Assembly: GCA_031416075.1 (NCBI GenBank)
Contig: JANOSY010000002.1
Span: 9,606 to 73,605, forward strand
Direction of reading: 5' to 3'
Origin: Candidatus Tenderia sp.
GTDB lineage: Bacteria; Pseudomonadota; Gammaproteobacteria; Tenderiales; Tenderiaceae
Length of the DNA stretch: 64,000 nucleotides
Both the position numbers and the translations under genes were made by a program. Every line of letters starts with the position of its first letter. Position 1 is the first letter of the stretch. Positions 11,657 to 61,167 of this stretch are shown in pieces. A model generated the notes under the pieces. It ran no database searches. It worked only from the letters and a program-made list of their open reading frames with translations, and was not told the origin of the DNA.

Positions 11657-11985
11657 TTACAGCAATAAAATTATGGGGTGCTGTGAAAAACCCCCGTGTT
11701 CAAAGTACGTATGGGGCGCAGATTCGACGAGGCGGGCTTATCACGCCACAGACGGGGGAGTTAATCAGTTCTTCCGGGGCTTGGTCTGGTTGACTCTCCT
11801 GTTTTAGTTTTCGATAAGTAACTGAGTATGAATTGCCGCAGTATCACTGCCGGTTGTACATGCGCCGGACCCCCCCCCTCACTATCTTGGCCCTTGTCGG
11901 GGCAAAGTCATCTTCATAAATGAGTGGTTCGGTTCTCAGCTCCCAGAAAATAGATCTGGCCTACCTGACAGTCTTAAATTTTCGG

Positions 11986-12011
11986 CCGCACCTCCCAAAT
12001 GGGAGGTGCGG
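11986..12011. other. Perfect hairpin CCGCACCTCCC-AAAT-GGGAGGTGCGG
   Basis: 11-bp perfect inverted repeat in a ~650-bp intergenic region. Confidence 0.75.
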
Positions 12012-12313
12012 AAAGAAAATCGCCTGAATAGACTCCCTACGACTGATGTGGAAAGCCCCTCGCGTTGCCATGCCGCTGTCGCTCCGGCAATGGGGCAGCC
12101 CCTCATTCAACGCCATTTTATGATTGTATTTCGTCTGTTCGCGTACGGTTTTTACATGGTCGGGGCAAGGGCGCTAGATAGGCAAAGCTGGCGCAAACGG
12201 AAGTGGTTTTTATGCAGTGGTTCGACCGTAGTCAAATCCATACACGAGTGGTGTGATTTGGCTGAATTAATGGGGTATGTATTTAGGCACGTTAGAGTCG
12301 GGGGACAGATCCA

Positions 12314-14530
12314 ATGAATTCGCTACGCAATATGTTTCGGTTGGTGGGATTGTTTTTGGTTGCTACGCTGCTCACCGCGTGCGGGGGTGGCGGTGGTGAT
12401 GGCGTTCCACAAACAGATACTGGACTTACGCCGTCGTCAATCACCGTAACCCCATCGCTAGGCGTCATAACTAACGCAACAGTTAGCATTTACAAGGCCG
12501 ACGGCACAACCTTTATTGGCAGCGGTGATCTCGGTTCATCAGGCAAAGTGACCATCAGCTTCAACGACTACTCCGGCCCCGTTGTTATCGAAGTAGCAGG
12601 CAATGCTGCCGCCCGCTATTTCGATGAAGCAACCAACGGTCTCGTGGCATTTCCCGCCGATAAAAAATTCCACGCCATCGCCCCCACCAGCAGCGGAACA
12701 TTCGCCGTTACCCTGCTGACGGAGTTGGCCTATCAACGTGCACTCGCCACCAACGGCTTCCCCTTGGTGGCCGCCAACGTCACCGCGCTCAATGAGAGCG
12801 TTCGCAAGGCGCTCATTCCAGAGATTGGCGATCTACTCACTCCCCCTACTATTTATAACTCCAGTACCACTGCCAACAGTCTTGGCAACGACGACGCTGG
12901 CAAATATGCACTCAAACTCGCCGCCTTAGCCCAATTTGGCAGCGGCCAGGCCGCGCCCGCGTTGGCCATCATGCAAATCCTCACGCAGGATATCGGGGAT
13001 GGCGTTATCAATGGCAAAGATTCTGCCAATGCCTCGATCAATGCGCCTTATAGCAACTTCTCCACTGAGCTGATGAGCAAGCTCACCTCAACAGCAGAAA
13101 GTTACGGTACGCCGGAATTAAAAACAGCGCTGGGTGGTTATCCTGCATTGGCACCGAATGTCGGTGGGGGTGGCAATGGTGCTGGAGGGAGTGGGTCACT
13201 GGCAATCGCCAATGCCCCGTCTTTCGTCGGAAACACCTTCATCGCCAGTAATAGCGAAATTGATAACTCAGATGCGTCAGAGCCATCGATTACGTGGATT
13301 AACGACAGCACCGTTATCGGCGTGGTTACAGATGGATTGACCAACAATGTCAAACTGATTGCTTTTTCTAGTTTATCATCATCGACATCAGGTGGGGCGG
13401 GGTGGGTATGCTCGAATGCTGTTGACTCCCCAATACCGTGCAGTGGAGTAACGTTGAACAGAAGCGCCGGCACCCTTACCTTGGCCAATACCAAGTTAAC
13501 GGGGGGTACGAACGGGGTGATCGCTACCTACCCAGATATTACGTTAAATGGAACGCTGACTTTTACTCCAAGCAGTATTGGTGGTAACACAGGTGGTAGT
13601 GGCGAAAGCGTTAATTCCACTACCGGTAACAACAGCGCCGTGCTGAGCGGCGCGGCCATTGGCAAAGGCACCACGTCCGTTGATAACCTTCGTAAGCAGA
13701 TCGCTGTGACTGTGCTCGGCCAGGGCACGCTCCCTCTCACCGTCGGCACTGCATACGCCACACGAAGCAGTACCAGCAGCTACTTAGACTACGCCTACAT
13801 CATCTTGCCGGTAACCAATACCGGAAACCAACTTTTATGCTATATAGAGCTCGCAGGGCTAACGTATCGCAATGCCAGTGGTGTGGCACTTGCGGATCCT
13901 GGCTACACCTACGTGCGTGGGTCGGTTGGAAAGCAATCAATCTTCAGCTCCAACTACTACACCAATAGCTGTCTTGCCCCCGGCGAAACGGGCTGGGTGA
14001 TCGACATCGAATCTATCTACTCGAACGTCGCGGCGATGGAGTTTACCTTCGAATCCAGTTCTTCGGCTTTGAGCGCCCCCACTGCACGTGTGATTCCACA
14101 GAGTTATACGGTCAATCCAATCGCAGATGGCGGAGGACAATCTTTGGCTGTCACCGTCACCAATATTGGCTCGGGTTCGGCACAGATTTCCGGATTTGGT
14201 AATCTGTTGGTGTTGTTTGACGATGCGATGCGACCACTGTTTTATGACGTTGCCAGTGACGTAATGCCAAGTAATGGACTCATCCCTGTGTCCGGTACAG
14301 CAACGCTTACCACAGACTACCTTGGAAGTTACTACGAAGGATCGGGGCAAAAACTGCTCGTCTTCGTAGATTTCGAGGACACCACCACAGCTAGTGCCAG
14401 GTCTTTAGCCGGCTCTATAAACCCAGCATCCGAAGAGTGCGATGCCGCTCTATCTCGAGACGAATTGAATATGTGCATCCTCGAGAGCAGAAATCGACGG
14501 ATAGCGGCACAGGAGGCTTCCATGCAGTAG
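12314..14530 (+). CDS. Large multidomain lipoprotein, unknown function
   Basis: Lipobox LLTAC-GGGGG; Gly-rich linkers; beta-rich C-terminal domains (VTNTG...CLAPGETGW). Confidence 0.85.
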   Translation: MNSLRNMFRLVGLFLVATLLTACGGGGGDGVPQTDTGLTPSSITVTPSLGVITNATVSIYKADGTTFIGSGDLGSSGKVTISFNDYSGPVVIEVAGNAAARYFDEATNGLVAFPADKKFHAIAPTSSGTFAVTLLTELAYQRALATNGFPLVAANVTALNESVRKALIPEIGDLLTPPTIYNSSTTANSLGNDDAGKYALKLAALAQFGSGQAAPALAIMQILTQDIGDGVINGKDSANASINAPYSNFSTELMSKLTSTAESYGTPELKTALGGYPALAPNVGGGGNGAGGSGSLAIANAPSFVGNTFIASNSEIDNSDASEPSITWINDSTVIGVVTDGLTNNVKLIAFSSLSSSTSGGAGWVCSNAVDSPIPCSGVTLNRSAGTLTLANTKLTGGTNGVIATYPDITLNGTLTFTPSSIGGNTGGSGESVNSTTGNNSAVLSGAAIGKGTTSVDNLRKQIAVTVLGQGTLPLTVGTAYATRSSTSSYLDYAYIILPVTNTGNQLLCYIELAGLTYRNASGVALADPGYTYVRGSVGKQSIFSSNYYTNSCLAPGETGWVIDIESIYSNVAAMEFTFESSSSALSAPTARVIPQSYTVNPIADGGGQSLAVTVTNIGSGSAQISGFGNLLVLFDDAMRPLFYDVASDVMPSNGLIPVSGTATLTTDYLGSYYEGSGQKLLVFVDFEDTTTASARSLAGSINPASEECDAALSRDELNMCILESRNRRIAAQEASMQ

Positions 14531-14568
14531 CCACGCCGTTTTCGCATTCCTACGTTGCAGGTTAGCCA

Positions 14569-14697
14569 GGTGGGCACGCTTTTTGTGCCCACGCAGACAA
14601 ACGCGGAAACAGATGAACATGACAAATAATAATCCGCTGTGGTTGATGATGGCGCACCGCGTGGGCAACCTAAAAAACGGATTGCTCACCGCACTAC
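14569..14697. repeat. ~130-bp REP-bounded element, copy A
   Basis: Aligns along its whole length with 17581-17710; terminal palindromes GTGGGCAC..GTGCCCAC and GTGGGCAA..TTGCTCAC. Confidence 0.85.
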
Positions 14698-14728
14698 TGA
14701 CGATAGGCATGGCTAAATGGGGGATAAA

Positions 14729-17575
14729 ATGCGCAACACAACAGGGTCGTTAGGTCATATGTTTCGTTTGGTGGTGTTGCTATTGGCTGCAACGCTGTTT
14801 GTTGCCTGTGGCGGTGGTGGTTCCGATCCTGCTCCGATTGCGCCTGATTCCGAACCTGCAACAGGGACGGTTTCAGGGTTGGTCGTCTCGGCCATCACCG
14901 GTGCGGCCATCCCCGGCGCAACCATTCGCGCAGGCACTGCCAGTGTGACGTCGGCGGCGGATGGGAGTTACACCTTAACGGCAGGCGTCAACGAACGCGC
15001 CATCATCTCTATCGCGGCAGTGGGTTTTGCGGAAACCTTTCAGGTGGCCCGCCTGGCGGACGGGCTGACGGCGGCACTCGAAGTACAACTGCTGCCTGTC
15101 GGGGTGACGCAGCCCATCACTATCGCGGCGGGCGGCACGGTTACGGTGCCGGACTCCAGCGCCCAGGTCACCATTCCCGCTGGCGGACTTGTGTCGGCAA
15201 CGGGTGGCGCGCCAGCGACCACGGTTAACGTATCACTCACGCCGATCAATCCGGCGATAGATTCCCGCGTCATGCCGGGAGACTTTACGGCGCTGCTCAC
15301 CGGCAGTGGTACCCCGGTCGCCATTGAAAGCTTTGGCGCACTGTTGGTGGATGTACGCGACGCCAGCGGCACACGCTACAACTTGGCGGAAGGACAAACC
15401 TCCACCATCCGCATCCCGGTGGGGTCACTCTCGGCATCACCACCCCCCACCATTCCTTTATTGATGTTTAACGAAACGACTGGCCGCTGGGTAGAGGAGG
15501 GCACCGCCACCCTCACAGGCCCCGCGCAAAACCAGTTTTACACCGGGACGGTAAAACAATTCGGTCGCTGGAACGCCGATCAGGCGATGAACACGGTGAT
15601 GGTCTCAGGCTGTGTCCGTGATACTGCCAATCAACCGGTGGAAAACGTGAGTGTTAAGGCCGATGGCGTCAACTACTCAGGGTCGGCTTCGACATATACA
15701 GCGGCAGATGGCGGCTTCCGGCTGGCGGTGCGTCGTGATGGTCTAGTGACGATCAGCGTAACGTTCTTGCTCAATGGCAAGCCAGTGACCGCCACCGTCA
15801 ACGCAGGCCCCTTTACCGCCGATACCACACTGCCATCCTGCATTGAGACAGTACCTGTGCCGCTGGCAATCACCGCCCGGTTGCTGCCAGCAGGCATCGT
15901 CGGCACACCCTATAACGCTAGACTAGCCGCCACCAATGGCACCAAACCCTATTACTGGAGCTTCTCCGGTGCTATGCCGACGGGTTTAACACTAGATCAA
16001 GCCACCGGCCAGATCAGCGGTACACCCACGACAGCGGCCACTTTTAGCGGCGGCTTCGAGGTACAAGACAGCTCAACGCCCGTACAGTCAGCGACCACGC
16101 CCTTCACCATCACCGTGACCGCACCTGCGCCATTGGCGATTATCACAGGCTCAACACTCCCGAATGGCAGCGTGGGCACCGCCTATAACGCCAGCCTGAC
16201 TGCCGCCAACGGCACACAACCCTATGCCTGGAGTTTCATCGCCGGTAACTTGCCGACGGGCCTGACACTGAGCACCACCGGCCAGATTAGCGGCACGCCA
16301 ACCGTCGCAGGCACCTTCCTGTTCACGATACGGGCGCAGGACAGTTCAATGCAGTCGGTGACTGCGCCGTTCAATATCATCGTGGCCGCGCCCGCACCGT
16401 TTGGCATTACCACATCGTTGCTCCCGGCGGGAATCGTGGGTAGCGCCTATAGCACCAGTCTGGCCGCCGCCAATGGTACGCAGCCCTATGTCTGGAGTCT
16501 CATCACCGGCGCCCTGCCAACGGGGCTGACACTGAGTTCAACCGGCCAGATCAGCGGCACACCGACCGTTGCGGGTGTTTTTCCCGTGACGATAGAGGCG
16601 CAGGACAGCACGACACCAGCAAAGTCGGCGAGCGCGTCGTTGAGCATCACCGTGACCGCGCCCGACACCACGCCCCCTACGGTTATTTCGACAACACCGG
16701 CCAACAGCGCTACCGCTGTGGCGATCAACAGCCCCATTAGCGCTACCTTCAGCGAAAACATGAGCGTTGCCACCCTCACGCCAGTCACATTCAGCGTGAA
16801 CGGTGTTGCTGGCACGGTGACCCATTTAGGCACCACGGTCACTTTCACCCCTTCCGGCCCACTGACCACTAATACTAGCTACACCGCGACTATTGCTACG
16901 GGAGTGAGCGACGCGGCCGGGAATGCCATGACCAGCGCTTACAGCTGGAGTTTTACGACACAACAGAGCGGCAGCGACTTAACAGAAAAAATTGGGGTAT
17001 GGGAAGGCGAAGGATTACAACCTGGATTTGGCACATGGACTATAAAAGTAACTATAAAAGCGGGAGAGCAGTTGATTGAATATCCGTCCCTGAGGTGTGG
17101 TGGAATTCTAACGTTGTCATCTGCCACCAATACACAACTCACCTTCAGAGAAAAGATAACCTTTGGTGGATGTGTAGATAATGGGTTTGTTGAGCTTGCC
17201 GATGAGTCGAGCAATAAACTTATCTATCGTTGGTATTATCCAGATACAAACAATAGCCAAGGAAGTTTGGGCGCGACTGGTAGTGTGACCCTAGTGACTC
17301 CAGAGGCAGATTTTTTGGCGTTGGCGAAAAAAAGCGGTTGTTTAGCTTGTCACTCCGTTGAGAAAACAGTTGTTGGTCCAGCATTGCGAGATGTTGCTAA
17401 CAAATACAAAGGCGATGCAGCAGCTAAAGCAGCTCTTGTTGCTAAAGTAAAAGCGGGTGGTAATGGTAACTGGACTGCGGTAACAGGTGGGGTTCCAATG
17501 CCACCCTACTCACCACGTGTTACTGATGCCAACATCGAGAAGTTAGTTGACTTCATACTTGGCTTGGCTGGGTAA
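14729..17575 (+). CDS. Lipoprotein: carboxypeptidase-regulatory-like domains, 3 putative Ig (He_PIG-like) repeats, Big_5-like Ig, unknown domain, C-terminal class I cytochrome c (c551/c552-like)
   Basis: Lipobox LFVAC-GGGG; 3x LPxG.VG..Y...L.A.NGT.PY.WS...G.LPTGLTL...GQISGTPT; DTTPPTVISTTP; CLACH...VGPA...GVPMPP. Confidence 0.9.
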   Translation: MRNTTGSLGHMFRLVVLLLAATLFVACGGGGSDPAPIAPDSEPATGTVSGLVVSAITGAAIPGATIRAGTASVTSAADGSYTLTAGVNERAIISIAAVGFAETFQVARLADGLTAALEVQLLPVGVTQPITIAAGGTVTVPDSSAQVTIPAGGLVSATGGAPATTVNVSLTPINPAIDSRVMPGDFTALLTGSGTPVAIESFGALLVDVRDASGTRYNLAEGQTSTIRIPVGSLSASPPPTIPLLMFNETTGRWVEEGTATLTGPAQNQFYTGTVKQFGRWNADQAMNTVMVSGCVRDTANQPVENVSVKADGVNYSGSASTYTAADGGFRLAVRRDGLVTISVTFLLNGKPVTATVNAGPFTADTTLPSCIETVPVPLAITARLLPAGIVGTPYNARLAATNGTKPYYWSFSGAMPTGLTLDQATGQISGTPTTAATFSGGFEVQDSSTPVQSATTPFTITVTAPAPLAIITGSTLPNGSVGTAYNASLTAANGTQPYAWSFIAGNLPTGLTLSTTGQISGTPTVAGTFLFTIRAQDSSMQSVTAPFNIIVAAPAPFGITTSLLPAGIVGSAYSTSLAAANGTQPYVWSLITGALPTGLTLSSTGQISGTPTVAGVFPVTIEAQDSTTPAKSASASLSITVTAPDTTPPTVISTTPANSATAVAINSPISATFSENMSVATLTPVTFSVNGVAGTVTHLGTTVTFTPSGPLTTNTSYTATIATGVSDAAGNAMTSAYSWSFTTQQSGSDLTEKIGVWEGEGLQPGFGTWTIKVTIKAGEQLIEYPSLRCGGILTLSSATNTQLTFREKITFGGCVDNGFVELADESSNKLIYRWYYPDTNNSQGSLGATGSVTLVTPEADFLALAKKSGCLACHSVEKTVVGPALRDVANKYKGDAAAKAALVAKVKAGGNGNWTAVTGGVPMPPYSPRVTDANIEKLVDFILGLAG

Positions 17576-17580
17576 GCCGT

Positions 17581-17710
17581 GTAGGGTGGGCGCGTTGTTT
17601 GTGCCCACGCAGTCAAATGTGGAGATGAATGAACATGGCAAATGATAATCCGCGTGTTTGATGTGGCGTACCGCATGGCCAACCCAAAAAACGAGTTGGC
17701 CATCGCGCTG
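17581..17710. repeat. ~130-bp REP-bounded element, copy B
   Basis: Begins GTAGGGTGGGCGCGTTGTTTGTGCCCACGC; aligns with copy A. Confidence 0.85.
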
Positions 17711-17906
17711 GGAGAGAGTGCGGAGTAGTTGAGTTTGACAAAGGTAGGCAGTGATAAGAAAGCGGCGGTTCGACAAAGTCGCCGCAAACGCTAACGCGTT
17801 TTAAAAAAACGATCAATTGTAACCAAAGTCACGGACAATTAGCGTGGCTGAATTGGTTTAACGGGGGGTGCTATGCACCATAAAATTCCAGGGAGACGTA
17901 CTTAAC

Positions 17907-18584
17907 ATGCTAAATATCAAAGGTGTTACTACCAAGATATCTATTTTTTTATTTATATTATTTGCGCTCTCTCCCCGAATTGTTTTTTCGGAAGATCGGC
18001 CAAAGGTGATGTTTATGATTGCCGAGCAAAATATCGGCGATAAAGTATTTACCTACTGGTGGAGCCGGTACAGCAGCAGCGTCGCCGTTGTAACCCCATT
18101 GACAGGTATTGTTGCCAGCGAGACGGGGGTTGTCAGGCAGACCGACATTCAACACCAGCGTTTCGATCTTTCAGTCGGAGAAGCCATTCTTAAAGAGGAG
18201 TTTTTGAATACAGGGTTTGATGTAATCGACATTGCCAGTGTGTCAGACAAAATCAAGGTGTCGGAGGCGTATAAGGTCATGGACCTTGCAAAAGATGCCA
18301 CGCTCGAAATCGGCAAAGATGTCGGTGCGGATATCATTGTTACAGGAAAGATCATCGCTAAACGCGGCCCAATTAATACAGGTAGCAACGTCGGCACCTA
18401 TATGGCTGACATCACCGCCACTGCATTTCAGGTAAAAGATGGTCTCGTGCTGGCTTCAGGTCGTGCAAACGATGTTGCTCGGCATGTTTCCGAAATAACG
18501 GGAGGGAGTCAGGCCATCGAAAGGGCGTCACAAAAGCTGGCAAAAAAAATGGTTGAGCAGATGAATGCAAAGCTAAAGCAGTAA
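17907..18584 (+). CDS. Exported protein with CsgG/FlgT-like (TolB-N-type) alpha/beta fold
   Basis: Signal peptide; KVMFMIAEQ, GFDVID, GADIIVTGK, DGLVLASG pattern. Confidence 0.55.
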   Translation: MLNIKGVTTKISIFLFILFALSPRIVFSEDRPKVMFMIAEQNIGDKVFTYWWSRYSSSVAVVTPLTGIVASETGVVRQTDIQHQRFDLSVGEAILKEEFLNTGFDVIDIASVSDKIKVSEAYKVMDLAKDATLEIGKDVGADIIVTGKIIAKRGPINTGSNVGTYMADITATAFQVKDGLVLASGRANDVARHVSEITGGSQAIERASQKLAKKMVEQMNAKLKQ

Positions 18585-18628
18585 CTTCATCACGTTAAAA
18601 ATAAAACAAGACTCTTGGGGAGTACGTT

Positions 18629-19405
18629 GTGAATAGACAAAAATTTAAAATGGCGTTGTTATTGGCAGTGACTTGGATTATTGCAGGTTGTGCGACGGCG
18701 CCCCAGATTGTTATGCCTTCCAACCCTGCCAATCCCATCAAGCGCGTCGCGATTCTTCCAATGCTGGATAACTCGGATGATGTTGATGCGCCGACTCGCA
18801 TTAGAGATGAGTTCTTCAACCGCTTGGGACGATACAATTATGATATCCAGCCTCTCGCAGAAACCAATGAATTACTGAATTTCCAGATGGGCATTACCAT
18901 GGGCAAGCAGTATGACCAGGCAACCCCCCAGGAGATCGGTAAAACATTGGGGGTGGATGGCCTGTTCTACGGTTATCTGCTTGATTTTGATGAGGTCACT
19001 ACCGGATTCGTCAATAGCTATAAAGTCCGTATGGGATGGAAACTGGTGGACACCAAAACCGGTAAAGTCTCGTGGGGGAAAGGGGTCGCGGTTCGAAGAA
19101 CGCAATCTATAGGGAATCTTGCCGGAGCAGCGCATGCAGTTGGGTCTGCAACGGATCAAGTAGGGCTTACTGAGTCAGAAAAAGTCGAAGTCATGCCTGG
19201 TTCCAAGGATCCTATGAATGAAATGCCAGGATTAGACAAGTGGATTTCAATGGGAGACAAGTCGTCTAGCCTTGCTGGAGGCATAGTCGGAGGGCTTATG
19301 GATAAGGTGGGGGGCGGCATCATGGGCAACAGTTTAAAAAATGAAATCAAATTTGCTTACGACAATCTGTTTCCTACCATGTTGGTTGGCCCAGTAGTCA
19401 AATAA
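18629..19405 (+). CDS. GNA1162/DUF799-like lipoprotein
   Basis: Lipobox IIAGC; RVAILPMLDNSDDVDAP; LGVDGLFYG; LVDTKTGKVSW. Confidence 0.7.
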   Translation: MNRQKFKMALLLAVTWIIAGCATAPQIVMPSNPANPIKRVAILPMLDNSDDVDAPTRIRDEFFNRLGRYNYDIQPLAETNELLNFQMGITMGKQYDQATPQEIGKTLGVDGLFYGYLLDFDEVTTGFVNSYKVRMGWKLVDTKTGKVSWGKGVAVRRTQSIGNLAGAAHAVGSATDQVGLTESEKVEVMPGSKDPMNEMPGLDKWISMGDKSSSLAGGIVGGLMDKVGGGIMGNSLKNEIKFAYDNLFPTMLVGPVVK

Positions 19406-19470
19406 CCTCTGCAAGTGATGTGGTGTCGGTATCCACTAATTTTTAAATAGATCCAACAAGGGAGCAATAA

Positions 19471-20430
19471 ATGGAAATTAATAAATCAAAGGCCTTCGGT
19501 TATTTTTCAGTGCTTATCATCAGCACTCTGTTTTTTTCTGGGTGTTCGAGTATGAGTGGCGAGGTTAAAAAAGATGTGTCGCTCACGGATCAGACCGAGA
19601 AGCTGGAAAAGGCGGGGGCAAATTACACAGGCCCCCAATATACAATCGGCATCATTACCTTGTTAAATAAAACACCGTCTAAGGTCTTGGGGATAGATGA
19701 AGCTGCAACAGATATTCTCAGAACAACCATCAAACAGGCGGGTCTCGAACCTGTCATGCTCACCAAGGATGAACTTAAACAGCATGATTCGATGGTCGAG
19801 CTGCAGCAGTCCGGGGTTGTGAAAACAGGGAAAAAGGATGCGGCGGAAGGCATGAATTCGATTGATTTTCGGGTGTCCGGCGCCATCACTTCCTATGCTG
19901 AGTTGGCTGAAGGTAACAATTTATTAATTGCAAAAACCAAAACGCAGATTGCACGTGTCGGTGTGGATTATGCGTTGGTCGACATCGCCAGCGGAAAAAC
20001 GCTGGTTGCAAAATCGGGCCTTGGAGAGTATCGCAAAGAGAATACAAAGTTTCTTGGTTTGGGGAACTCTTCATCTGCAGATGTCAGTTTGCGTGAAGGT
20101 GCGTTAAGAGATGCTATGAACAAAGCTGTCGAAGCCATGATTCTTGAGTTGAATAAGCTGCCCTTTCAGAGCAATATTCTGCTGGTCGATGGGGGTTCGA
20201 TTGTTTTCAAAGCAGGCACACGGTCCAAACTCGAATCAGGCGCTCGGTTGGCGGTCTATCGTCCTGGCGAAGAGTTGATTGATCCGGAAACGGGGCGGTC
20301 CTTAGGGAAGCGGGAAAAACGCGTGGGTGAAATTAAACTCTCGAGCCATACAAATAGCACCGTTTCAGAAGGAAGTGTGGCCGAAGGCTCTGGTTTTGTA
20401 AAAGGGGACATTCTACGACTCGTTCAATAG
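19471..20430 (+). CDS. CsgG/HfaB-like lipoprotein with FlgT-C-like C-terminal domain
   Basis: Lipobox FFSGC; YTGPQYTIGI; GAITSY; VDYALVDIASG; ELIDPETGRSLG. Confidence 0.7.
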   Translation: MEINKSKAFGYFSVLIISTLFFSGCSSMSGEVKKDVSLTDQTEKLEKAGANYTGPQYTIGIITLLNKTPSKVLGIDEAATDILRTTIKQAGLEPVMLTKDELKQHDSMVELQQSGVVKTGKKDAAEGMNSIDFRVSGAITSYAELAEGNNLLIAKTKTQIARVGVDYALVDIASGKTLVAKSGLGEYRKENTKFLGLGNSSSADVSLREGALRDAMNKAVEAMILELNKLPFQSNILLVDGGSIVFKAGTRSKLESGARLAVYRPGEELIDPETGRSLGKREKRVGEIKLSSHTNSTVSEGSVAEGSGFVKGDILRLVQ

Positions 20431-20462
20431 ACTTTTTCGTATCATCTGAGATTAATTAAGAG

Positions 20463-20500
20463 ACAGGCTGTTTGTTCATAAAAAACGGCCTGTTTTTTTT
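20463..20500 (+). terminator. Rho-independent terminator
   Basis: ACAGGCTGTTT...AAACGGCCTGT followed by a T-run. Confidence 0.7.
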
Positions 20501-20696
20501 ATGAACTATAATGAGGGGGGAGATTTGGGTTTTCCTTGCCAATCTAGGGTTGGTTGAGAAGGTTTCGCAAACACCATGGCGGTCGGCCAAAGGTTAAGCA
20601 GGATATAGTAGGATGGCATTTTCACTTAATCATGTTGTTGTGTGAGGGTGGCACTGTTTCTGCAGGTGGGTGATTGTCGGGGGATAGTCAAACGTT

Positions 20697-21839
20697 ATGG
20701 ATAGTGAAAGTTACGATGCGTTAGTTGAATCCATTTATGATGCTGCGCTAAATCCTGAACGCTGGGATACGGTTGTTTCAGGATTGAAGGATGCGTTTGA
20801 TTCCATCGGGGCCGGTTTTTTTGTGCAAACCGCAGATCAGCGGGGAGATGGTCACTATATTCATGGGCTTGATAGTCACGAAATGGATGTGTATGGCGAA
20901 CACTTCGCCAGCGTTAACCCTTGGTTCACTATTCCTGGTTTGATGAAGCCGGGGCGGGTGCTTACTGATCTCTCTCTTGAAAAAATACACAATGACAAAG
21001 GCGCTTTCCTCAAGACCGAAATGTATCAGGATTGGTGCAAAAAGCAGGATATTCGCCATCTCATGGGGGGAAGTTTGCAAGATATACATGGGAGCCTTCT
21101 GAATTTTTCTTTCTTTCGATCACAGCAGTCGGGCTACTTCACCGATGCTGAGATTAAGTGTTACCAGAGATTGTGTCGCCATTTGATAAAGGCAGTGGAG
21201 ATCAATGCCAGGACAATGGGGCTTGTGCCGGGGGCTGGCAGTCAGGAGGGGGCATTGGATTGCCTGCGCCTTGGGGTGGTTACGCTGGATGGTTTCGGTC
21301 GCATTGTGTTTGTGAATAAATATGCAGATGCGTTACTTAAGAGCAATAAAGGTCTTTGCGAAAAGGAGTTGCGCCTAAAGACGGTGGACCACAGCTCCCA
21401 GAAACTTCTGGATCAGGCACTTGATCAGGCGCTCAACGCACGTAAAAGTGCAGCGCTGACACTGTCACGCTCTGCGGCATCAGAGTTGTCACTCTGTGTG
21501 ATACCTGTCTCTGATAAGCGTGACTTTCTGGGTATGCCAAGCCGCTCTGTAACGATCTTCATCTCTGATCCAGATGACCGCGAGGTCGCTAACGTCGATT
21601 GTCTTGCCAAGCGTTGGCAATTGTCGCCTCTGGAGGCGCAGTTTGCCTTGCAGCTGCTCAAGGGGCTTAACGTCAAGGAGATTGCCGTAGCGCTGGAACT
21701 TACTCGTAGCACTGCACAGTGGTACTGCAAGCAGATCATGCAGAAGCTGGGGGTCAGGCGTCAGTCTGAGCTTATCCTTAATCTCACTAAAGACCTTTCG
21801 TTCTTTCTCGACCCCAGCTCCGCTTACCGGGGCAGGTGA
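20697..21839 (+). CDS. LuxR-type HTH regulator with N-terminal GAF-like and PAS-like domains
   Basis: IYDAALNPERW start; C-terminal LSPLE...GLNVKEIAVALELTRSTAQWYCKQIMQKLGVRRQSEL. Confidence 0.85.
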   Translation: MDSESYDALVESIYDAALNPERWDTVVSGLKDAFDSIGAGFFVQTADQRGDGHYIHGLDSHEMDVYGEHFASVNPWFTIPGLMKPGRVLTDLSLEKIHNDKGAFLKTEMYQDWCKKQDIRHLMGGSLQDIHGSLLNFSFFRSQQSGYFTDAEIKCYQRLCRHLIKAVEINARTMGLVPGAGSQEGALDCLRLGVVTLDGFGRIVFVNKYADALLKSNKGLCEKELRLKTVDHSSQKLLDQALDQALNARKSAALTLSRSAASELSLCVIPVSDKRDFLGMPSRSVTIFISDPDDREVANVDCLAKRWQLSPLEAQFALQLLKGLNVKEIAVALELTRSTAQWYCKQIMQKLGVRRQSELILNLTKDLSFFLDPSSAYRGR

Positions 21840-21913
21840 CACATCGGTATGGGGGCTTCATAATAATATTCCACCAAAGGCACTTCAGCCGCACACCCAA
21901 GACTGGAATATAG

Positions 21914-53775: not shown

Positions 53776-53917
53776 AATTTTGGCATAGTGCCTGGATGTT
53801 AGGAAAGTTAGATAAATGGGGATTTAGGGTGTTCTTGACGTGGCTCTGTGCGTGGGTGTAGTGTTCGGTGCCAAGAACTACTTGAAGAAAGATAAGAAAT
53901 GGGAGGGCGTCTTTGTT

Positions 53918-54685
53918 ATGCGCAATTATTTGATTAAGTTGGGGTCGGCTTCAGTGGTCGCTCTGTCGATGATGTTGGCTCCATTGGCACATGCAAGCGG
54001 TAACGCTGGCAATATTGACCGCGTTAATGGAAAGTCAATTTTTGAAAAGGGTAAAGGGGATGTGCCGGCGTGTAACTCATGCCACGGTGCTGATGGTATG
54101 GGCAACGATGATATGGGCACGCCTCGGCTAGCCGGTCAGATTTACGTATTTCTGGTTAAGCAGTTGCACGATTTCGCCACTGATAAACGCCAAGACACTA
54201 CCATGTACGTCATGAACGCTAACGCAAAAGGGCTGAGTGAACAGGATCGTCGTGATGTTGCGGGCTACCTTAATTCGCTGGGCCGTGCTTTCGAAGGTAA
54301 GCACTTGCAAGAGACCTCTGGTGGTTCCGATATGGCTGCTCTAAAAGAGTCAGGCACCGAGGTTGGCAAGAGTCATCTTGGAAAAGTGATAGTTAATTTT
54401 GGCGTGCCCGAGCGTGGCATTCCTGCTTGCCTTTCCTGTCATGGCCATGCAGGTCGTGGTGTGGAGCCGATGTATCCACGTATAGGCGAGCAGAAATTTG
54501 TTTATCTGGTCAGTCAGTTGAAAAAGTGGCGTGACGGTAGTCGTGCCAACGACCCTATGAAACAGATGCAGATTGTCGCGGGCAAAATGACTGATGAAGA
54601 TATCCTCAATGCTGCAACATATCTGACTCAGGCACCTCAGACTACGATGGGCAACAGCCGTATTCCGGTTGAGCATTTGCCATAG
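53918..54685 (+). CDS. Periplasmic diheme cytochrome c4 (Cyc1-like)
   Basis: Signal ending AHA; CNSCH and CLSCH; PRLAGQ..LVKQL and PRIGEQ..YLVSQL; Met ligands. Confidence 0.92.
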   Translation: MRNYLIKLGSASVVALSMMLAPLAHASGNAGNIDRVNGKSIFEKGKGDVPACNSCHGADGMGNDDMGTPRLAGQIYVFLVKQLHDFATDKRQDTTMYVMNANAKGLSEQDRRDVAGYLNSLGRAFEGKHLQETSGGSDMAALKESGTEVGKSHLGKVIVNFGVPERGIPACLSCHGHAGRGVEPMYPRIGEQKFVYLVSQLKKWRDGSRANDPMKQMQIVAGKMTDEDILNAATYLTQAPQTTMGNSRIPVEHLP

Positions 54686-54732
54686 GTTAGAAGTTTTACC
54701 GGGGTGCAGAAAATCTTGGTGACTTAAATAAT

Positions 54733-54760
54733 GGGGCGGCCTTGGCCGCCCTTTTTTTTC
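54733..54760 (+). terminator. Rho-independent terminator
   Basis: GGGCGGCC-TT-GGCCGCCC followed by T8. Confidence 0.85.
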
Positions 54761-54796
54761 TCTGGCAATAAAGCTGTTACGTGAGTGGTAGAAGGT

Positions 54797-55399
54797 ATGG
54801 CTAGTAAACATGCGTTAAAGCAGGGTGAGAAGGTTTTGTTTGGTGTCTTTGGCGCTTTTATAGTTGCTGCGGTGCTCGGTTATATTGTGCTGGAGGTTGT
54901 GCGCCATAATCTTGATAAGCCTATGTATCAGGTAACAACCCACTTCGCGTTGTCTGACGATGGGCTGAAGGGGTCGGTAGTATTTCGCGAAGGGCGTTGT
55001 ACTGCGTGTCATAGGGCTATGCGTAATGGCACAAATATGGGGCTATCACTGGATGGTTTGGGCAGCAAGCGCACGGTTGATTGGATATATGCCTTTTTAC
55101 GCGACCCCGAAAAAATGTATGGTTCGACCACGCTTGATCATGGGGAGTTTCCAAAAGAGGCTGCCTATGTTGCAAAAATGCCAGAAGCCGAGTTGAAGCT
55201 AATCGCAGTATTTCTCTCTGAGTTAATATCAGATCAGGGCTCCCCCTCTTCCCCAGTGCCTCCATCTGGCGAGTCGGGATTTATTGATGGTGCGTTGAAA
55301 ATGGTTGCCCCTCCGGATTGGAAGGATAAGTATAAAGACGTGCGTGAGCAAGGTGGCGTGGAAATATTGGATGTAGAAAAAAATGCAACAGAGAGGTGA
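54797..55399 (+). CDS. Membrane-anchored monoheme cytochrome c
   Basis: N-terminal TM; CTACH; LDGLGSKR..DWI..FLRDP. Confidence 0.85.
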   Translation: MASKHALKQGEKVLFGVFGAFIVAAVLGYIVLEVVRHNLDKPMYQVTTHFALSDDGLKGSVVFREGRCTACHRAMRNGTNMGLSLDGLGSKRTVDWIYAFLRDPEKMYGSTTLDHGEFPKEAAYVAKMPEAELKLIAVFLSELISDQGSPSSPVPPSGESGFIDGALKMVAPPDWKDKYKDVREQGGVEILDVEKNATER

Positions 55400-55916
55400 T
55401 GTGGTGAACGAGCCGTGGACGCAGGATAAGGTGTATATTCGTTATACACTGTGGTTTGTTTATTGCTGCATAATCTATAGCATTATTGGATTTTCCTGGG
55501 GTGCCTTGATGGGAGGGATCTCTGAGTTTAGGCACTTTGTTGATCATCGGTTGCATGGAGATTTGATTGTGCGTGCTCATACCCATATCAATCTGTTGGG
55601 TTGGGTTGAAATGGCAATTTTTGCTGCTGTTTACTACATAATTCCACGTTTGGTACGGCGTCCCATATATAGCATTACTTTGGTTAAGGTTCATTTTTGG
55701 ACGCATAATATTGGCCTGATTGGGATGGTTTTGCTGTTTACTATCGCAGGTGTCTTGGGCGGTATGGCTAGTGTGGCAATGGCACCGGATGAAGTGGAAA
55801 AAATTGTGAAGCCGTGGTTGGCCGCAATGGGTCTGTTTGGTACCGTGGTGTTAATCGCTAATTTAATATGGGCTTACAACTTGACCAGAACTTGTTTGGG
55901 ATGGGAGAAAGATTAA
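55383..55916 (+). CDS. Single-unit (4-TM) heme-copper-oxidase homology protein
   Basis: AHTHINLLGW, VYYIIPRL..RPIYS, VHFW: match helices IX-XII of CcoN; start uncertain. Confidence 0.8.
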   Translation: MQQRGDVVNEPWTQDKVYIRYTLWFVYCCIIYSIIGFSWGALMGGISEFRHFVDHRLHGDLIVRAHTHINLLGWVEMAIFAAVYYIIPRLVRRPIYSITLVKVHFWTHNIGLIGMVLLFTIAGVLGGMASVAMAPDEVEKIVKPWLAAMGLFGTVVLIANLIWAYNLTRTCLGWEKD

Positions 55917-56422
55917 TGCTGAAAATGAGCGTGTTTTCTTTGGTGTTGATTTCGTTCCTGATGGGGTGTGGCGCGGTACCTGTAGGTATGTTGCAAGTAG
56001 GGTCAGAAGCCCCGCGCATTAAAACGAAAACACTGGCGGATGTAGATGGAGACTTTAGTCGCATCACTAGTTATCGTTATCCAGATGAGCGCATGTATGA
56101 GTATTCTTTAGATGACGCTCTGAAGACAGGTAAGCCGATAGTCTTGGAGTTTGCAACCCCAGGACACTGTACGGTGTGTGATGTGCAGTTACAGATGTTA
56201 AAGGGTTTGTTGGCTGAGTACGGGGAGGATGTAATATTTCTTCACATGGACCAATACCAGAATCCTGAAGCATTTAAAGCGTTTAAGGTGATGGGGGATC
56301 CTTGGACGTACATCATTGACGGTGAGAATAAGGTGCAATACAAACAAGCGGGCAGAATGCTTTATGGTGAGCTCGAGTCTGTGATTAAGCGTGTCTTGAA
56401 TGTTGAGACTGGCAATGGCTAA
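55916..56422 (+). CDS. Thioredoxin-fold lipoprotein
   Basis: Lipobox FLMGC; FATPGHCTVC; GDPWTYIID. Confidence 0.8.
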   Translation: MLKMSVFSLVLISFLMGCGAVPVGMLQVGSEAPRIKTKTLADVDGDFSRITSYRYPDERMYEYSLDDALKTGKPIVLEFATPGHCTVCDVQLQMLKGLLAEYGEDVIFLHMDQYQNPEAFKAFKVMGDPWTYIIDGENKVQYKQAGRMLYGELESVIKRVLNVETGNG

Positions 56423-56873
56423 GAGCGAAAACTATGAGTTACTACCGGACAAGCAAGGAGCCTTGTGGGATGTCGTGATGTATGTCCCGGTGGTGGTTGT
56501 TTTGGCCTCGCTGGCATTGCAGCTCTGGTATGGAGGCACGTACAAAAACTTTTCATATGTTCTTATTTTTGCGGCGAGCTTTATCTTTCTTATTGGCGCG
56601 AATCGAGTGTTAAAAAGCCGTCTAATGATACTGCCAAGTGCGCCTAGGTCTTTTGAAATAGACAAAAAATTGGTTGTGGTCATATTGCGGAATGGCGAAC
56701 GGGTTGAGCTGGTGAGGGAACTACGTTATTTTTCCGATTATGCCGGAAAGTCATTTGGATTGACGGGTGTCGATTTGTCGGGCAAAAAACAGCAGTTTGT
56801 CTTCCATAAGGCGCAGTTTGGTGGCGGATCTGACTTTAATGATATTAGGTCTCGTCTAGCCGTTTATAAGTAG
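56415..56873 (+). CDS. Hypothetical membrane protein (2 TM + soluble domain)
   Basis: ORF overlapping the upstream gene; two hydrophobic segments. Confidence 0.75.
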   Translation: MAKSENYELLPDKQGALWDVVMYVPVVVVLASLALQLWYGGTYKNFSYVLIFAASFIFLIGANRVLKSRLMILPSAPRSFEIDKKLVVVILRNGERVELVRELRYFSDYAGKSFGLTGVDLSGKKQQFVFHKAQFGGGSDFNDIRSRLAVYK

Positions 56874-56882
56874 GGGGGGTTA

Positions 56883-57083
56883 TCACTGGCGAGGCTTTTT
56901 ACGCTGCCTAATTATGTCCCATGCCATAAGCGCCATGGTAACGGCGGCAACAATGCAGCCTATTATGATGGCAGCAATTTCTGTCTCCGGACTGACAAGT
57001 CCTCCTATAAACATATGAATTGAATAGCCAAAAACAGTCAGGCCAGCGATTGCTGCGATGGTGTAGATTATTATTTCTTTCAC
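56883..57083 (-). CDS. Small 2-TM hypothetical protein
   Basis: 66 aa; YSIHMFIGGLVSPETE between two TM helices; basic tail. Confidence 0.7.
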   Translation of the reverse strand: MKEIIIYTIAAIAGLTVFGYSIHMFIGGLVSPETEIAAIIIGCIVAAVTMALMAWDIIRQRKKPRQ

Positions 57084-57431
57084 GAATTTGCTTTGTGTTG
57101 TATCAATGGAATAAAAAATTACAAGTTTTCATTCTATCGATTTTCACCTTTGGTTTGTAACATTTTTTGTGGGTTAGGTATGGTGATGTATAGTTGATTG
57201 ATTTGGGCGGTTATGTAGGCGTTTTGTTGTTCTCGGGAATTGAAGCAAACACCTTAAAAAGACTTGACTGTCATTGTTTCTTTATGCAAACATCTCCAGT
57301 CGGAGTTGGCTTCTATGAAAGCTTTCCCAGATGTGTCTAACCAAGGGGGCTTGGGTTGGATGGGGAGTAGAAGTTAGGTCAAAACGGCATCATAAAATTT
57401 TTAGTCTGTCAATTTGTTGAGGAGGGGAATC

Positions 57432-57722
57432 ATGGTTAATAACCTGACGCCGGGTAAAACGTTTATTCTGAGTTTAATCTCTGGGTTTGTCACAGGAATG
57501 GGCAATGGGAGCGTTTTTGGTGCGGCCTTGATGTGTGCGCTGGGGCGAGCTCGATTTGAGGATTGGGGTGGCTGGGGCGCACAAGCGTATGACCCTACGA
57601 CATTCCAGGGTTTTGTTGACTGGTGTATGCTTGTATTCGGTGCGGCTTATGTTGTCATTATGATGGTGGCTCTCAATCGTCATGGAGAGTTAGAGGCTGT
57701 AGCTGCGCGTAAAGGGCATTAA
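57432..57722 (+). CDS. Hypothetical membrane protein
   Basis: RBS GGAGGGG; Gly-rich TM segments. Confidence 0.75.
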   Translation: MVNNLTPGKTFILSLISGFVTGMGNGSVFGAALMCALGRARFEDWGGWGAQAYDPTTFQGFVDWCMLVFGAAYVVIMMVALNRHGELEAVAARKGH

Positions 57723-57801
57723 AAAATCTGTATAAATAATTACAGCAGTGACGCATATTTGTGTTGGTTGTGAAATATATACGTTTTGGAGGGGTACGGT
57801 T

Positions 57802-57894
57802 ATGGTAATGATAGCGACAATCTTGGGGATTCTCCTTGCACTTTCTAGTATGTGGTTTTCTTGGTATCTGTTGATGCCCGGTGAGCACAATTAG
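57802..57894 (+). CDS. 30-aa single-TM microprotein
   Basis: RBS GGAGGGG; MVMIATILGILLALSSMWFSWYLLMPGEHN. Confidence 0.6.
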   Translation: MVMIATILGILLALSSMWFSWYLLMPGEHN

Positions 57895-57951
57895 GCGTTG
57901 AACAGCGGATTTTGGATTTATTTGTAATAAGATAAGGGGAGGTTGTAAACC

Positions 57952-59358
57952 ATGTTTAAATATCTGTTTGCGAGAAACGAGGATATTCCGCCAGGAACAG
58001 CGGCGGTCTATTTTGGTTTTTCGTCGATTCTTTGGTTTGTTATCGGTACAGGCCTAGGCTCGTTTAACGCGGCCAAGCTTGCGTTTCCTGATTTTGTAAC
58101 AGGAAGCGAACTGTTTTCGTTTGGCCATATGCGCCAAGTTCACGTATTGGCAGTAATTTTTGGTTGGATTTCCATGGCGTTTGCGATGGCGATGATGTAC
58201 ATCACTCCGGCCTTGGGTAATACCAAGCTGTGGTCTGAAAAACTGGGTGTATGGAATTGCTTCTTGTGGAATTTTGGGCTTTCAACAGGCCTGACATTGC
58301 TATGGTTTGGTGTCACGTCTGGGCGTGAATATTCAGACTTTCCGTGGTTCATTGATTTGTTCATTGCGTCGTTTATTGCTCTGCCTTTAGCGATCAATGT
58401 GTGGATGACCATTCTGACTCGTCGTACGCAGGGTATATACACGACCAACTGGTTCTTTGGTGCTGGTGTGTTCATGATTGCCATTGTGTTCATAGTTGGC
58501 AACAGTCCTGAGTGGTTCAACTTGACCGGTTTGAGTGAGGCCTACCTGACGTGGTGGTTTGCTCATAACGTGCTGGGGCTGTGGATTACGCCAATTGCGG
58601 CTGCCATTGCATATTATACGGTTCCAAAAGTGACCGGTAATCCGCTTTATTCACACCGTATTGGACACCTTCATTTCTGGTCAGTTGTAGTGTTTTATTC
58701 TACTCCAGCGGCCCATCATTTGATGTCTGCCCCATTGCCTGAGTGGTTGAAATCTTTTGCATCGGTAGAAGGTGTTTTGATACTTGTGCCTGCAATTGCC
58801 TTCGTCTCTAATTTGCTACTCACTATGCAGGGCAAGTGGCATATGTTCGTGGAAAACGTTGAAATCAAATTTACCATCACCGGTGTTTTGATGGCTATCC
58901 CGTTAAATATGCAGGGTGGTTTTCAGCAAACCCGTGCGATTAACTGGTATGTGCATGGTACTGGTTGGATTGTTGCCCATGCACACTTGGCGTTATTGGG
59001 CTTTTCAACATTCTTGGAAGCGGCAGCGGTATATTACGGTCTTCAGACGATTTTGCGCCGTAAACTGTTTTCGTTGGCACTGGCCAATTTCCACTTCTGG
59101 TTCTTGTTGATAGGGTTCTCAATTTATTGGGTCTCCATGACTATCGCAGGTCTTATCCAAGGGGCAGGTAAAATTTATGAAGTTCCCTACATCGACGTTG
59201 TAATTGCCGAACACCCGTACATGATTGCGCGCTGGGTTGGAGGCACGATGGTATTCACGGGTAATATTGTGTGGTTATACAATATGTACATGACTGCTAA
59301 GGCCGGTACTGAGATACCAGAAGGTCGTCTGCCTCACGAGCTGGCTTACGAACGTTAA
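57952..59358 (+). CDS. ccoN: Family C (cbb3-type) heme-copper oxygen reductase subunit I, divergent clade
   Basis: RQVH, WWFAHN, HFW.....Y.....HH, WIVAHAH: six His plus helix VII Tyr. Confidence 0.9.
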   Translation: MFKYLFARNEDIPPGTAAVYFGFSSILWFVIGTGLGSFNAAKLAFPDFVTGSELFSFGHMRQVHVLAVIFGWISMAFAMAMMYITPALGNTKLWSEKLGVWNCFLWNFGLSTGLTLLWFGVTSGREYSDFPWFIDLFIASFIALPLAINVWMTILTRRTQGIYTTNWFFGAGVFMIAIVFIVGNSPEWFNLTGLSEAYLTWWFAHNVLGLWITPIAAAIAYYTVPKVTGNPLYSHRIGHLHFWSVVVFYSTPAAHHLMSAPLPEWLKSFASVEGVLILVPAIAFVSNLLLTMQGKWHMFVENVEIKFTITGVLMAIPLNMQGGFQQTRAINWYVHGTGWIVAHAHLALLGFSTFLEAAAVYYGLQTILRRKLFSLALANFHFWFLLIGFSIYWVSMTIAGLIQGAGKIYEVPYIDVVIAEHPYMIARWVGGTMVFTGNIVWLYNMYMTAKAGTEIPEGRLPHELAYER

Positions 59359-59381
59359 TAGTAGTAGGGGAGGAATTTTAA

Positions 59382-60332
59382 ATGGCTTTTAGAGAGTATA
59401 AAATCGGAGCGAGGTTGTTTGGGGTAGCTCTTGGTGGTTCCATGGTGATTACGCTGTATTTTCCTACCGTAAACATGACCTCGGTGGCGGTTACCGAGAT
59501 TGGTTTGAAGAAGCAGCTTTCTTATGGACGTATCAGTGGTTTCTCTTACGAAGATCCATTTCTTCGGGGGGAAGGGAAGCCAAAGACTGTAATGCTAAAC
59601 ACAGATCCAAAGACTGGTGCTCAAATTGACCCCATAGAGGCGTATGTCTATGAGGCGGGGGTTCCTTTCCCGAGCGGGGTTAATCATCCCCGTACACTTG
59701 GACCAGGTGTTACACAGCTAAGTGTTGATAAGGGCATGATAGGTGAAGCCAATAAAGGTGCGGGTGCAGTCTTTGTGGTTAGCCGCGGGACTAGCCAGGG
59801 TGAGACGGTTACTTACATCGAAAATGCCAGTGCGACACGCGGCTGGCAACCTAGTGATGTACTGACAACAGCTGGTGATGCCAATACCAAGTTGGTTGGT
59901 TCCGGTAAAATCATGTTTGTGAGGGAAGGGTGTTGGTGGTGTCATACACTGTTGCCTGAGCAGACCCAGGACTGGCAGTATTTTGGTATACCTCCTCGTT
60001 TAGGAGATTTCAATGGTGAGTCCCCAACTGCGTTTGGTTCGGACCGTAAGGCTCCTGATTTGCTGCATGTTGGGTCCCGTAACTCCTCCAAAGAGTGGAT
60101 GATGATGCATTTCTTTAATCCACGTTTGGTGCAGCCGCATTCAATCATGCCACGGTATGACTATTTGTGGGGCGAGAAGGATGCTTCTGGTAAGAGTATC
60201 GATTTTGCTGCTTGGAGAACTGCATACACTGAGTATCAAAAAGGCAAAACAGTTTACCCACCAGAAGTACCGGATTATGCCGCTGATAGCGAGATTCGTT
60301 ACTTGATAGACTTTGTTTTAAGCCTTAAGTAA
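59382..60332 (+). CDS. ccoO: cbb3-type subunit II, extended
   Basis: FVREGCWWCH, FGSDRKAPDL.HVG, HFFNPR...SIMPRY. Confidence 0.88.
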   Translation: MAFREYKIGARLFGVALGGSMVITLYFPTVNMTSVAVTEIGLKKQLSYGRISGFSYEDPFLRGEGKPKTVMLNTDPKTGAQIDPIEAYVYEAGVPFPSGVNHPRTLGPGVTQLSVDKGMIGEANKGAGAVFVVSRGTSQGETVTYIENASATRGWQPSDVLTTAGDANTKLVGSGKIMFVREGCWWCHTLLPEQTQDWQYFGIPPRLGDFNGESPTAFGSDRKAPDLLHVGSRNSSKEWMMMHFFNPRLVQPHSIMPRYDYLWGEKDASGKSIDFAAWRTAYTEYQKGKTVYPPEVPDYAADSEIRYLIDFVLSLK

Positions 60333-60346
60333 GAGGGGATACAATT

Positions 60347-60976: not shown

Positions 60977-60994
60977 CAAATAAAGGAGTCAGTC

Positions 60995-61120
60995 ATGATT
61001 GATATTGATAACCCGCCTCTAGTTCTGCTAGGGATTATTATAGTGGTGTTTGTTGCACCATTTATCTACAGTTTCTTCATAGATGACTATGATAAGGGTA
61101 AGCCGCAGATTAAATCATAA
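60995..61120 (+). CDS. 41-aa single-TM microprotein (possible CcoQ-like subunit)
   Basis: RBS AAAGGAG; MIDIDNPPLVLLGIIIVVFVAPFIYSFFIDDYDKGKPQIKS. Confidence 0.7.
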   Translation: MIDIDNPPLVLLGIIIVVFVAPFIYSFFIDDYDKGKPQIKS

Positions 61121-61167
61121 CCTGCTTTTTTGCGGGCCAGATGGGCTCGCGATATGTGATTGATTTT

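Follow-up and report, generated by a model that had tools for sequence, protein, structure and literature searches.

A modular lipoprotein stalk tipped with a c551-type cytochrome in Candidatus Tenderia

The gene described here lies in 64,000 nucleotides of Candidatus Tenderia sp. (GenBank assembly GCA_031416075.1, contig JANOSY010000002.1, positions 9,606 to 73,605, forward strand), and this whole stretch is referred to as the window. It is a stop-free frame on the + strand, 14717/14729-17575, of 952 amino acids (aa) from the first ATG and 948 aa from 14729; residue numbers start at the ATG at 14717 unless a length is counted from 14729. An initial annotation, made from the letters alone, had taken it for one uninterrupted frame in which a redox head, a cytochrome c, is tethered on a long lipid-anchored stalk. 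The frame is indeed uninterrupted and the description of the architecture is fair, although a 112-aa domain between stalk and cytochrome (16970-17305) was overlooked. The calculated mature mass is ~93 kDa. The parts of the gene are as follows, with the evidence in brackets.

14729..17575, + strand: whole gene, lipoprotein stalk, beta-barrel and c551-type cytochrome (sequence, Pfam, bridged junctions)
14729..14809, + strand: lipoprotein signal peptide with lipobox FVAC at its end and the predicted lipidated Cys31 at 14807-14809 (sequence)
[quoted passage not shown]
14867..15865, + strand: conserved stalk base, with CarboxypepD_reg, a middle beta domain and a second CarboxypepD-like domain (Pfam, relatives)
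15866..16666, + strand: three He_PIG Ig-like repeats, spacing 264-273 nt (Pfam, repeat analysis)
16664..16960, + strand: Big_5 Ig-like domain, at about the start of divergence from the 97%-identical, RCC1-tipped relative P0008 (Pfam, comparison with P0008)
16970..17305, + strand: soluble, low-GC, eight-stranded beta-barrel with two Cys (predicted structure, third-position GC)
17309..17572, + strand: class I monohaem cytochrome of c551/c552 type, CxxCH (CLACH) at 17339-17353 and Met928 at 17498-17500 (Pfam, PDB matches)

Pfam finds all three of the domains, He_PIG, Big_5 and Cytochrom_C, that the initial annotation had expected side by side. Its adhesin-like domains are borne out by two stretches of CarboxypepD_reg, the best at aa 51-125, and the middle beta domain has a weak likeness to the FAM171 N-terminal domain (E 0.0038, below the cut-off). 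What had been called four Ig-like repeats is Ig-like throughout, but it consists of three He_PIG (E 5.7e-27) and one Big_5 (aa 650-748, E 8.8e-25) rather than of four repeats. With about nine beta domains the stalk would, on our estimate, reach ~30 nm if straight. The lipobox was also called correctly, FVAC with its Cys at 14807-14809 and then GGGGSDP, and the same type of signal is found in the upstream gene (D5) and in P0008.

The cytochrome is complete, as had been claimed, with VGPA after the CLACH of 17339-17353, the Met ligand of MPP at 17498-17500 and a Cytochrom_C match at aa 870-950 (E 2e-8). It has the class I c551/c552 features, namely an N-terminal CxxCH, a distal Met in xMPP and a helical domain of ~80 residues. 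The last 88 residues, the head, match 19 PDB sequences of c551/c552 (best E 1.7e-18), and for 2D0S, 1A56, 1AYG and 351C the match extends over the full domain (E 1.7e-18 to 2e-14) with CxxCH and Met ligand aligned. Those proteins are free periplasmic carriers of ~80 residues, whereas here the domain forms the last 88 of a 948-residue lipoprotein, fused at about the point where the signal peptide of free relatives is cleaved. Identity of the head to free periplasmic c551s reaches 86%, and 42 of 45 near-invariant columns are unchanged in it. In a comparison with 80 free relatives, the median silent difference (pS) is 0.80, the silent sites being saturated, and the replacement difference (pN) is 0.13. 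The protein has a single CxxCH motif, and so one predicted haem. The head looks able to bind haem, the host has CcmF-, CcmC- and CcsA-type genes, and loading of the head with haem is very probable.

The barrel of 112 aa is predicted as eight-stranded with a predicted local distance difference test (pLDDT) score of 92, from a four-row alignment. It has no match in Pfam and none among PDB sequences under E 1, and Atlas scores are 0.82 or below. Its structural likeness is spread over many soluble and membrane barrels, of which the best, at Z 12.9, is a designed barrel; the best natural match, tied with a giant-haemoglobin chain, is PDB 1PBY, the alpha subunit of quinohaemoprotein amine dehydrogenase (Z 11.1, root-mean-square deviation 2.7, 100 residues aligned, 15% identity). 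Since many unrelated barrels score alike, the barrel shares with 1PBY its fold only, and structural matches to a model would in any case give a fold and no function. We take 1PBY also to join cytochrome c, barrel and Ig-like domains, presumably as a dihaem protein with the opposite domain order and as part of a periplasmic enzyme. In a comparison with cargo of Slam and the type XI secretion system, TbpB and fHbp score Z 7.3-7.8, the barrel here is internal rather than terminal, and the best PF04575 (Slam) match reaches 20.6 bits against a cut-off of 22 bits. The barrel occurs in 2 of 401 genomes. Two proteins, P0006 and P0044, end in it, with no cytochrome after it.

The GC content at third codon positions (GC3) is 0.69 in the stalk, 0.38 in the barrel and 0.34 in the cytochrome, with a sharp break at the barrel. 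Because of this fall, the joins were checked for chimerism; nine public sequencing runs contain part of the window and contigs of four were compared, the results being those among the matches listed. Contigs of runs X1 (15270-18254) and X2 (12574-17540), each possibly the source of the assembly, cross both joins without a difference. The stalk/barrel join is also bridged (16854-17118, 0 differences) by two runs of a second study, X3 and X4, the first of which bridges the barrel/cytochrome join as well (17266-17447, 0 differences, 43 letters on the short side). An assembly chimera, the danger to which the initial annotation had pointed, is thus ruled out by contigs of two studies across both junctions. 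The fusion exists as DNA, and its reading frame is intact in runs of both studies. We infer from the break in composition that barrel and c551 may have arrived as one block from a lower-GC donor. The host has two free c551 copies and one flexibly tethered copy besides this gene, and it is unlikely that the head was copied from the host's own c551, with 82% identity in protein but pS 0.79 and GC3 0.34 against 0.64 for C19. Promoter and terminator counts are no higher than in shuffled sequences, and Rfam gave no match.

The stalk belongs to a large modular lipoprotein family with swappable tips. A search with the stalk base (aa 45-385) scored 8000 candidates of 523-1666 aa, of which 412 are relatives at E 1e-10; the best 120 were used. 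Their tips, classed by regular-expression labels, are 84 TLNG-type, 11 WHxF, 9 RCC1, 3 Kelch, 3 other propeller, 2 barrel, 1 cytochrome and 7 other, and Nitrospira is among the named members. On a stalk tree of 46 rows (the present protein and 45 of the 120) the tip label changes 14 times. Our protein is sister to the RCC1-tipped P0008, the base of which is 97% identical, and is nested among RCC1 and Kelch tips. A second cytochrome-tipped stalk, P0138, consists of the base, one He_PIG and the cytochrome and is near-identical to a gene of genome G002 (locus L003). An approximately unbiased (AU) test rejects a clade of these two stalks (p 2.7e-41), and the cytochrome tip was therefore gained two times on this stalk, recently in the line of the present gene. 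The commonest tip, that of 84 of the 120 relatives (P0085-P0234), is an unannotated and highly variable two-Cys domain ending in TLNGTLxFTPF, Nitrospira included; the gene upstream of ours (12314-14530) also carries a TLNG-type domain.

Of the 17 genomes of the order, 16 have the c551 module, as do 41 of 400 in the class. It recurs in 15 further proteins of modular build, where 1-4 copies stand among PKD, Big_5, FG-GAP, TSP3 and weakly PPC-like domains. Ten of the 15 were chosen by eye for folded spacers from the best 150 matches, 4 came from 6 further matches and the last is P0138; two are fragments. The axial Met is kept in all 33 fused modules extracted from these and the present protein. 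Extraction required CxxCH and Gly-Pro, which left out one divergent module of P0346, so that the Met alone is a free result. Fused modules have a median of 6 Lys and a net charge of +1, free ones 11 and +4, as would be expected if docking on periplasmic partners had been lost. Several independent origins of the fused module itself are not shown, since all 16 fused rows tested fit one clade (AU p 0.19, 45 of 143 rows); the quick tree of 143 rows is largely unresolved.

Some of these proteins deserve mention in their own right. P0001, P0003, P0236, P0237 and P0245 have two to four c551 beads alternating with PPC-like beta-sandwiches; P0001 and P0003, with four modules each, are 68% identical, and the Atlas gave no usable match for P0003. 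In P0261 and in locus L117 (894-1733) a Polyketide_cyc2 (START-like) domain is fused to a c551 module of the present type. A module match of genome G180 in a 511-aa frame was not counted, as a re-scan gave no CxxCH protein of at least 150 aa. Lipid-anchored c551s with long linkers of low complexity are widespread and frequently have Lys at +3; the host copy is at C8:59240-60037, and no paper on them was found. By a crude rule, 58 of the best 150 of 3063 representative matches are single-haem lipoproteins with a linker of at least 40 aa. These flexibly tethered forms share cytochrome subfamily and lipid anchor with our protein but have linkers of 40-170 aa, a charged N-terminus and no adhesin domains. 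A lipid-tethered c551 works like the cytochrome cy of Rhodobacter.

The Gly at +2 had been read as consistent with outer-membrane sorting. The Gly is there, but simple outer-membrane sorting is not what C-GGG indicates, this being a signal for T2SS/GspN or for keeping out of the Lol route. In the excerpts of PMC12802150 used here (this and the other papers cited are covered in part), GGG or ND(N/D) at P2'-P4' is required, though not sufficient, in T2SS-dependent surface lipoproteins, similar Gly/Asp motifs are described in Shewanella and Burkholderia, and GGG/GDD are cited as Lol-avoidance signals in Pseudomonas. GGGGSDP has GGG at P2'-P4' and six of seven residues G, S, D or N at P2'-P8'. At a threshold of at least 5/7, which was chosen in this analysis and counts kin that are not independent, the motif is seen in most stalk proteins (83 of 92) and modular cytochromes (6 of 10) with a called lipobox, but in few flexibly tethered c551s (4 of 58) and crude host lipoprotein candidates (14 of 105). 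Lys at +3 occurs in 23 of 60 flexibly tethered c551s versus none of 92 stalk proteins. The host (G000) has two GspD over the cut-off, a gsp cluster and GspN, and GspN is present in four of five other genomes tested, with or without a stalk (G002 has it). Our protein thus resembles known T2SS/GspN cargo, InvL of Acinetobacter baumannii and PulA, in GGG at P2'-P4', a G/S/D-rich P2'-P8' and a host with GspD and GspN; its host is a distant gammaproteobacterium, and the excerpts of PMC12802150 name no c551-tipped cargo. The C-GGG motif makes the cell surface, or an anchor in the inner membrane, a likelier location than the inner face of the outer membrane, and surface display is probable and the best inference. 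A second, divergent T2SS cluster with no GspN match lies at C28:1089-11016 of the host, beside a gene of 2013 aa.

The host genome is 3.49 Mb with 53% GC, and the best public runs containing the window are from freshwater sediment. Genes of tetrahaem, isomerase-like, barrel-like, trihaem (three), propeller-like (two), 11-haem and Ccs type follow one another on contig C91 as they do in the uet cluster, judged by the Figure 2 legend of 10.1101/2022.05.06.490989. RuBisCO is present, and neither DsrA nor SoxB was found over the cut-off. No Cyc2 was found by a motif scan of Met-started frames only, which is not a profile search; most Tenderiales are without Cyc2 according to excerpts of the same preprint. 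In the window, at 53840-63872, a cbb3 region comprises a truncated CcoN and thioredoxin-like and mono/dihaem genes in the order that the preprint describes as conserved; this Tenderiales-type region is already described. From Uet, cbb3 and RuBisCO genes, this setting fits extracellular electron uptake, and to that extent the redox context proposed for the gene holds. The gene is not part of a respiratory island: the cbb3 region is ~36 kb away, with no linkage, and the gene lies in an accessory insertion together with the following features.

11657..21913: accessory insertion of ~10 kb with the gene, between yicC and gmk (comparison with G001-G004)
12314..14530, + strand: haem-free C-GGG lipoprotein of the same module toolkit, with a TLNG-type domain and a C-terminus common to P0127 (sequence comparison)
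17585..17709, + strand: hairpin repeat after the gene, resembling repetitive extragenic palindromic (REP) elements, with an 80% copy at 14569-14695 after the upstream gene (sequence)
20697..21839, + strand: PAS/LuxR-type regulator, 70% identical to a gene beside the stalk gene in locus L098 (Pfam, locus comparison)

Three low-GC lipoprotein-like genes at 17868-20430 (DUF3280/DUF6175-like, GNA1162-like and CsgG-like) have no homologue in the other loci compared. The hairpins, GTAG-GGTGGGC...GCCCAC, which we take to be REP-like, have 26 pattern matches genome-wide and also occur near the stalk gene in locus L017; they could aid module exchange. PAS/LuxR-type regulators adjoin C-GGG lipoprotein genes in L098 (308-1423), in L017 (8651-9787) and in the host (C92:19440-22377), and these pairs suggest a mobile regulator-adhesin cassette. 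Genome G004 has a different insert at the yicC/gmk site (L113, 1197-3269, upstream of gmk), which marks an insertion hotspot and is presumably DNA methylase-like.

The best explanation of the gene is a modular lipoprotein of surface type with a respiratory c551-type cytochrome as an interchangeable tip. Behind it stand the swapping of tips, the order of the domains, haem ligands that are all in place and a host with genes for Ccm, T2SS/GspN and Uet. That the protein tethers a one-electron redox head at the cell surface, where it would meet minerals or cells and have a net role in extracellular electron exchange, is put forward tentatively. It would be exported by Sec, lipidated at Cys31 and supplied with haem by Ccm in the periplasm; C-GGGG would let it avoid Lol, and the folded holoprotein would then reach the cell surface via T2SS/GspN. 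The stalk would place one His/Met haem beyond the lipopolysaccharide. There the head could accept an electron from Fe(II), from reduced minerals or from an adjacent cell, and could then bend towards a surface conduit (the Uet undecahaem/porin), or towards another head, to give it up. As there is one haem and no haem chain on an insulating stalk, the stalk is not a wire and the head could act only as a moving tethered contact. For a host that has Uet and in which Cyc2 is not evident, its simplest use may be to pass an electron from Fe(II), a mineral or a cell to the surface conduit, although we would not press the point.

Among known systems the nearest in design is PgcA (GSU1761) of Geobacter sulfurreducens, a 'heme-tethered redox string' and likewise a lipoprotein with monohaem domains away from a non-haem N-terminal part. 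Excerpts of PMC10570954 and PMC5732950 describe it as exported beyond the periplasm, with two His/Met haem domains and a reach of ~20 nm, its homologues having 1-6 haems; its three domains are of low potential (-48 to -106 mV) and are joined by unstructured Pro-Thr linkers, and PgcA itself is cleaved, released and active in oxide reduction. In our protein, by contrast, the spacer is made of folded Ig, CarboxypepD and barrel domains and there is one c551/c552-type haem, not several haem domains on unstructured Pro/Thr or Ala/Pro stretches; the likeness described here is one of design. P0002 and P0235 come nearer to the PgcA design. The hosts differ too, ours looking like an autotrophic electron-uptake organism. 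Nor is the protein a porin-cytochrome of Cyc2 type, its haem being C-terminal and its 112-aa barrel small and internal, or a multihaem wire on an adhesin stalk of OmcN type, as it has one CxxCH and no haem chain. For iron oxidisers, the excerpts of PMC5566968 name Cyc2, multicopper oxidases and porin-cytochrome conduits as candidate systems, and they hold nothing like our protein. No description of a c551 on an Ig stalk was found in a literature search that left most subscription journals and supplements outside, and the supplement of the Tenderiales preprint could list such proteins. The architecture, which the initial annotation did not recognise, thus seems undescribed but is not unique to this gene, as the design recurs in other proteins of uncultured bacteria.

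A number of observations weigh against the role in electron exchange. The main difficulty concerns discharge into a multihaem wire: a c551 haem is likely to have a high potential, near +250 mV, from which transfer to typical wires of this kind would be uphill. There is one haem only. A cytochrome tip is rare, being found on 2 of 121 stalks (ours and the best 120 of 412); the c551 module lies in a frame of more than 400 aa in only 2 of 17 genomes of the order, and the best 80 genome loci are all free or flexibly tethered, with 0/80 fused. The gene is accessory: among the genus's other four genomes, yicC directly adjoins gmk in G001 and G002, G004 carries a different insert, and G003, with 94-96% nucleotide identity in the flanks, has only a 3' piece resembling the LuxR-type gene. 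Being accessory and rare, the gene cannot be the core mechanism. GspN also occurs in two genomes in which no stalk gene was found, G003 and G004, and fHbp is still displayed at the surface after removal of its Gly run (PMC5500766, in part). No RNA is among the public runs listed as containing the window. In the head, K884T, W890L and K916N are each found in 0 of 80 free relatives, and a new partner would explain these three changes just as well as slackening selection would; the solved c552 1A56 also has Leu at the W890 position, and 4 of 33 fused modules have Thr at that of K884. The contrast of pS and pN may predate the fusion.

Several of these points would also follow from near-neutral domain shuffling, in which the toolkit took the barrel and c551 as a block from a low-GC donor and the haem is useless, though the protein may be made and loaded. 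Tips swap fast (a 97% identical base with a different tip), GC3 breaks sharply, the island is missing in close relatives, three near-invariant head residues are changed, and the host already has two free c551s and one flexibly tethered. We nevertheless think it unlikely, as a cytochrome was captured on two unrelated stalks in one genus, the module recurs in the 15 other modular proteins, in some of which 3-4 modules have diverged without losing the Met ligand, and the frame is intact in runs of two studies. The case is limited in that searches favour intact modules and decayed copies are therefore under-counted.

A surface adhesin or sensor without net electron flow, the head binding metal oxides, an electrode or partner cytochromes, perhaps by redox state, would suit the single haem with no wire back to the cell, and the rest of the family's tips all have folds of binding type. 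For PgcA, binding to Fe(III) oxide but not to magnetite is reported (excerpts of PMC5732950). This is improbable in our judgement, given relatives with 2-4 c551 beads that look built for handing on electrons, as the domains of PgcA do (excerpts of PMC10570954), and a protein without a signalling domain. Least probable is a periplasmic carrier kept at the inner membrane by C-GGG, its stalk lifting c551 to the Uet conduit to ferry electrons to cbb3 oxidase or bc1: in Pseudomonas GGG serves as a signal to avoid Lol (excerpts of PMC12802150), the head is close to free periplasmic c551s and tethered c551s are common, but the tethered forms differ in their low-complexity linkers and N-terminus (Lys at +3 and the motif, as counted above), the host already has one, and the other tips of the stalk family look extracellular.

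The gene would therefore seem, as far as sequence can tell, to be a real, recurrent and undescribed variant of the surface lipoprotein cytochromes, and an accessory one. A wider proposal, that Tenderia-like and related lithoautotrophic Gammaproteobacteria turned the periplasmic c551 into a plug-in for T2SS-displayed 'redox adhesins' that feed the Uet conduit, is doubtful on present evidence. If it were true, there would be an undescribed class of proteins in which 1-4 c551 beads are set between Ig, PKD, PPC-like and propeller domains, and this class would be the counterpart of PgcA on the oxidiser side, with a folded stalk. Electrons would then be harvested tens of nanometres out from the cell surface, the sources being Fe(II) minerals, electrodes or partner cells. 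A c551 on such a stalk would also predict haem-bearing cargo for the T2SS lipoprotein motif, itself newly described, and would be a natural scaffold for the display of redox heads. The question served is how solid electron donors are reached by electroautotrophs and by neutrophilic iron oxidisers that have no Cyc2, and a c551 on a swappable adhesin stalk would offer a small, expressible candidate for the first contact with the solid donor.

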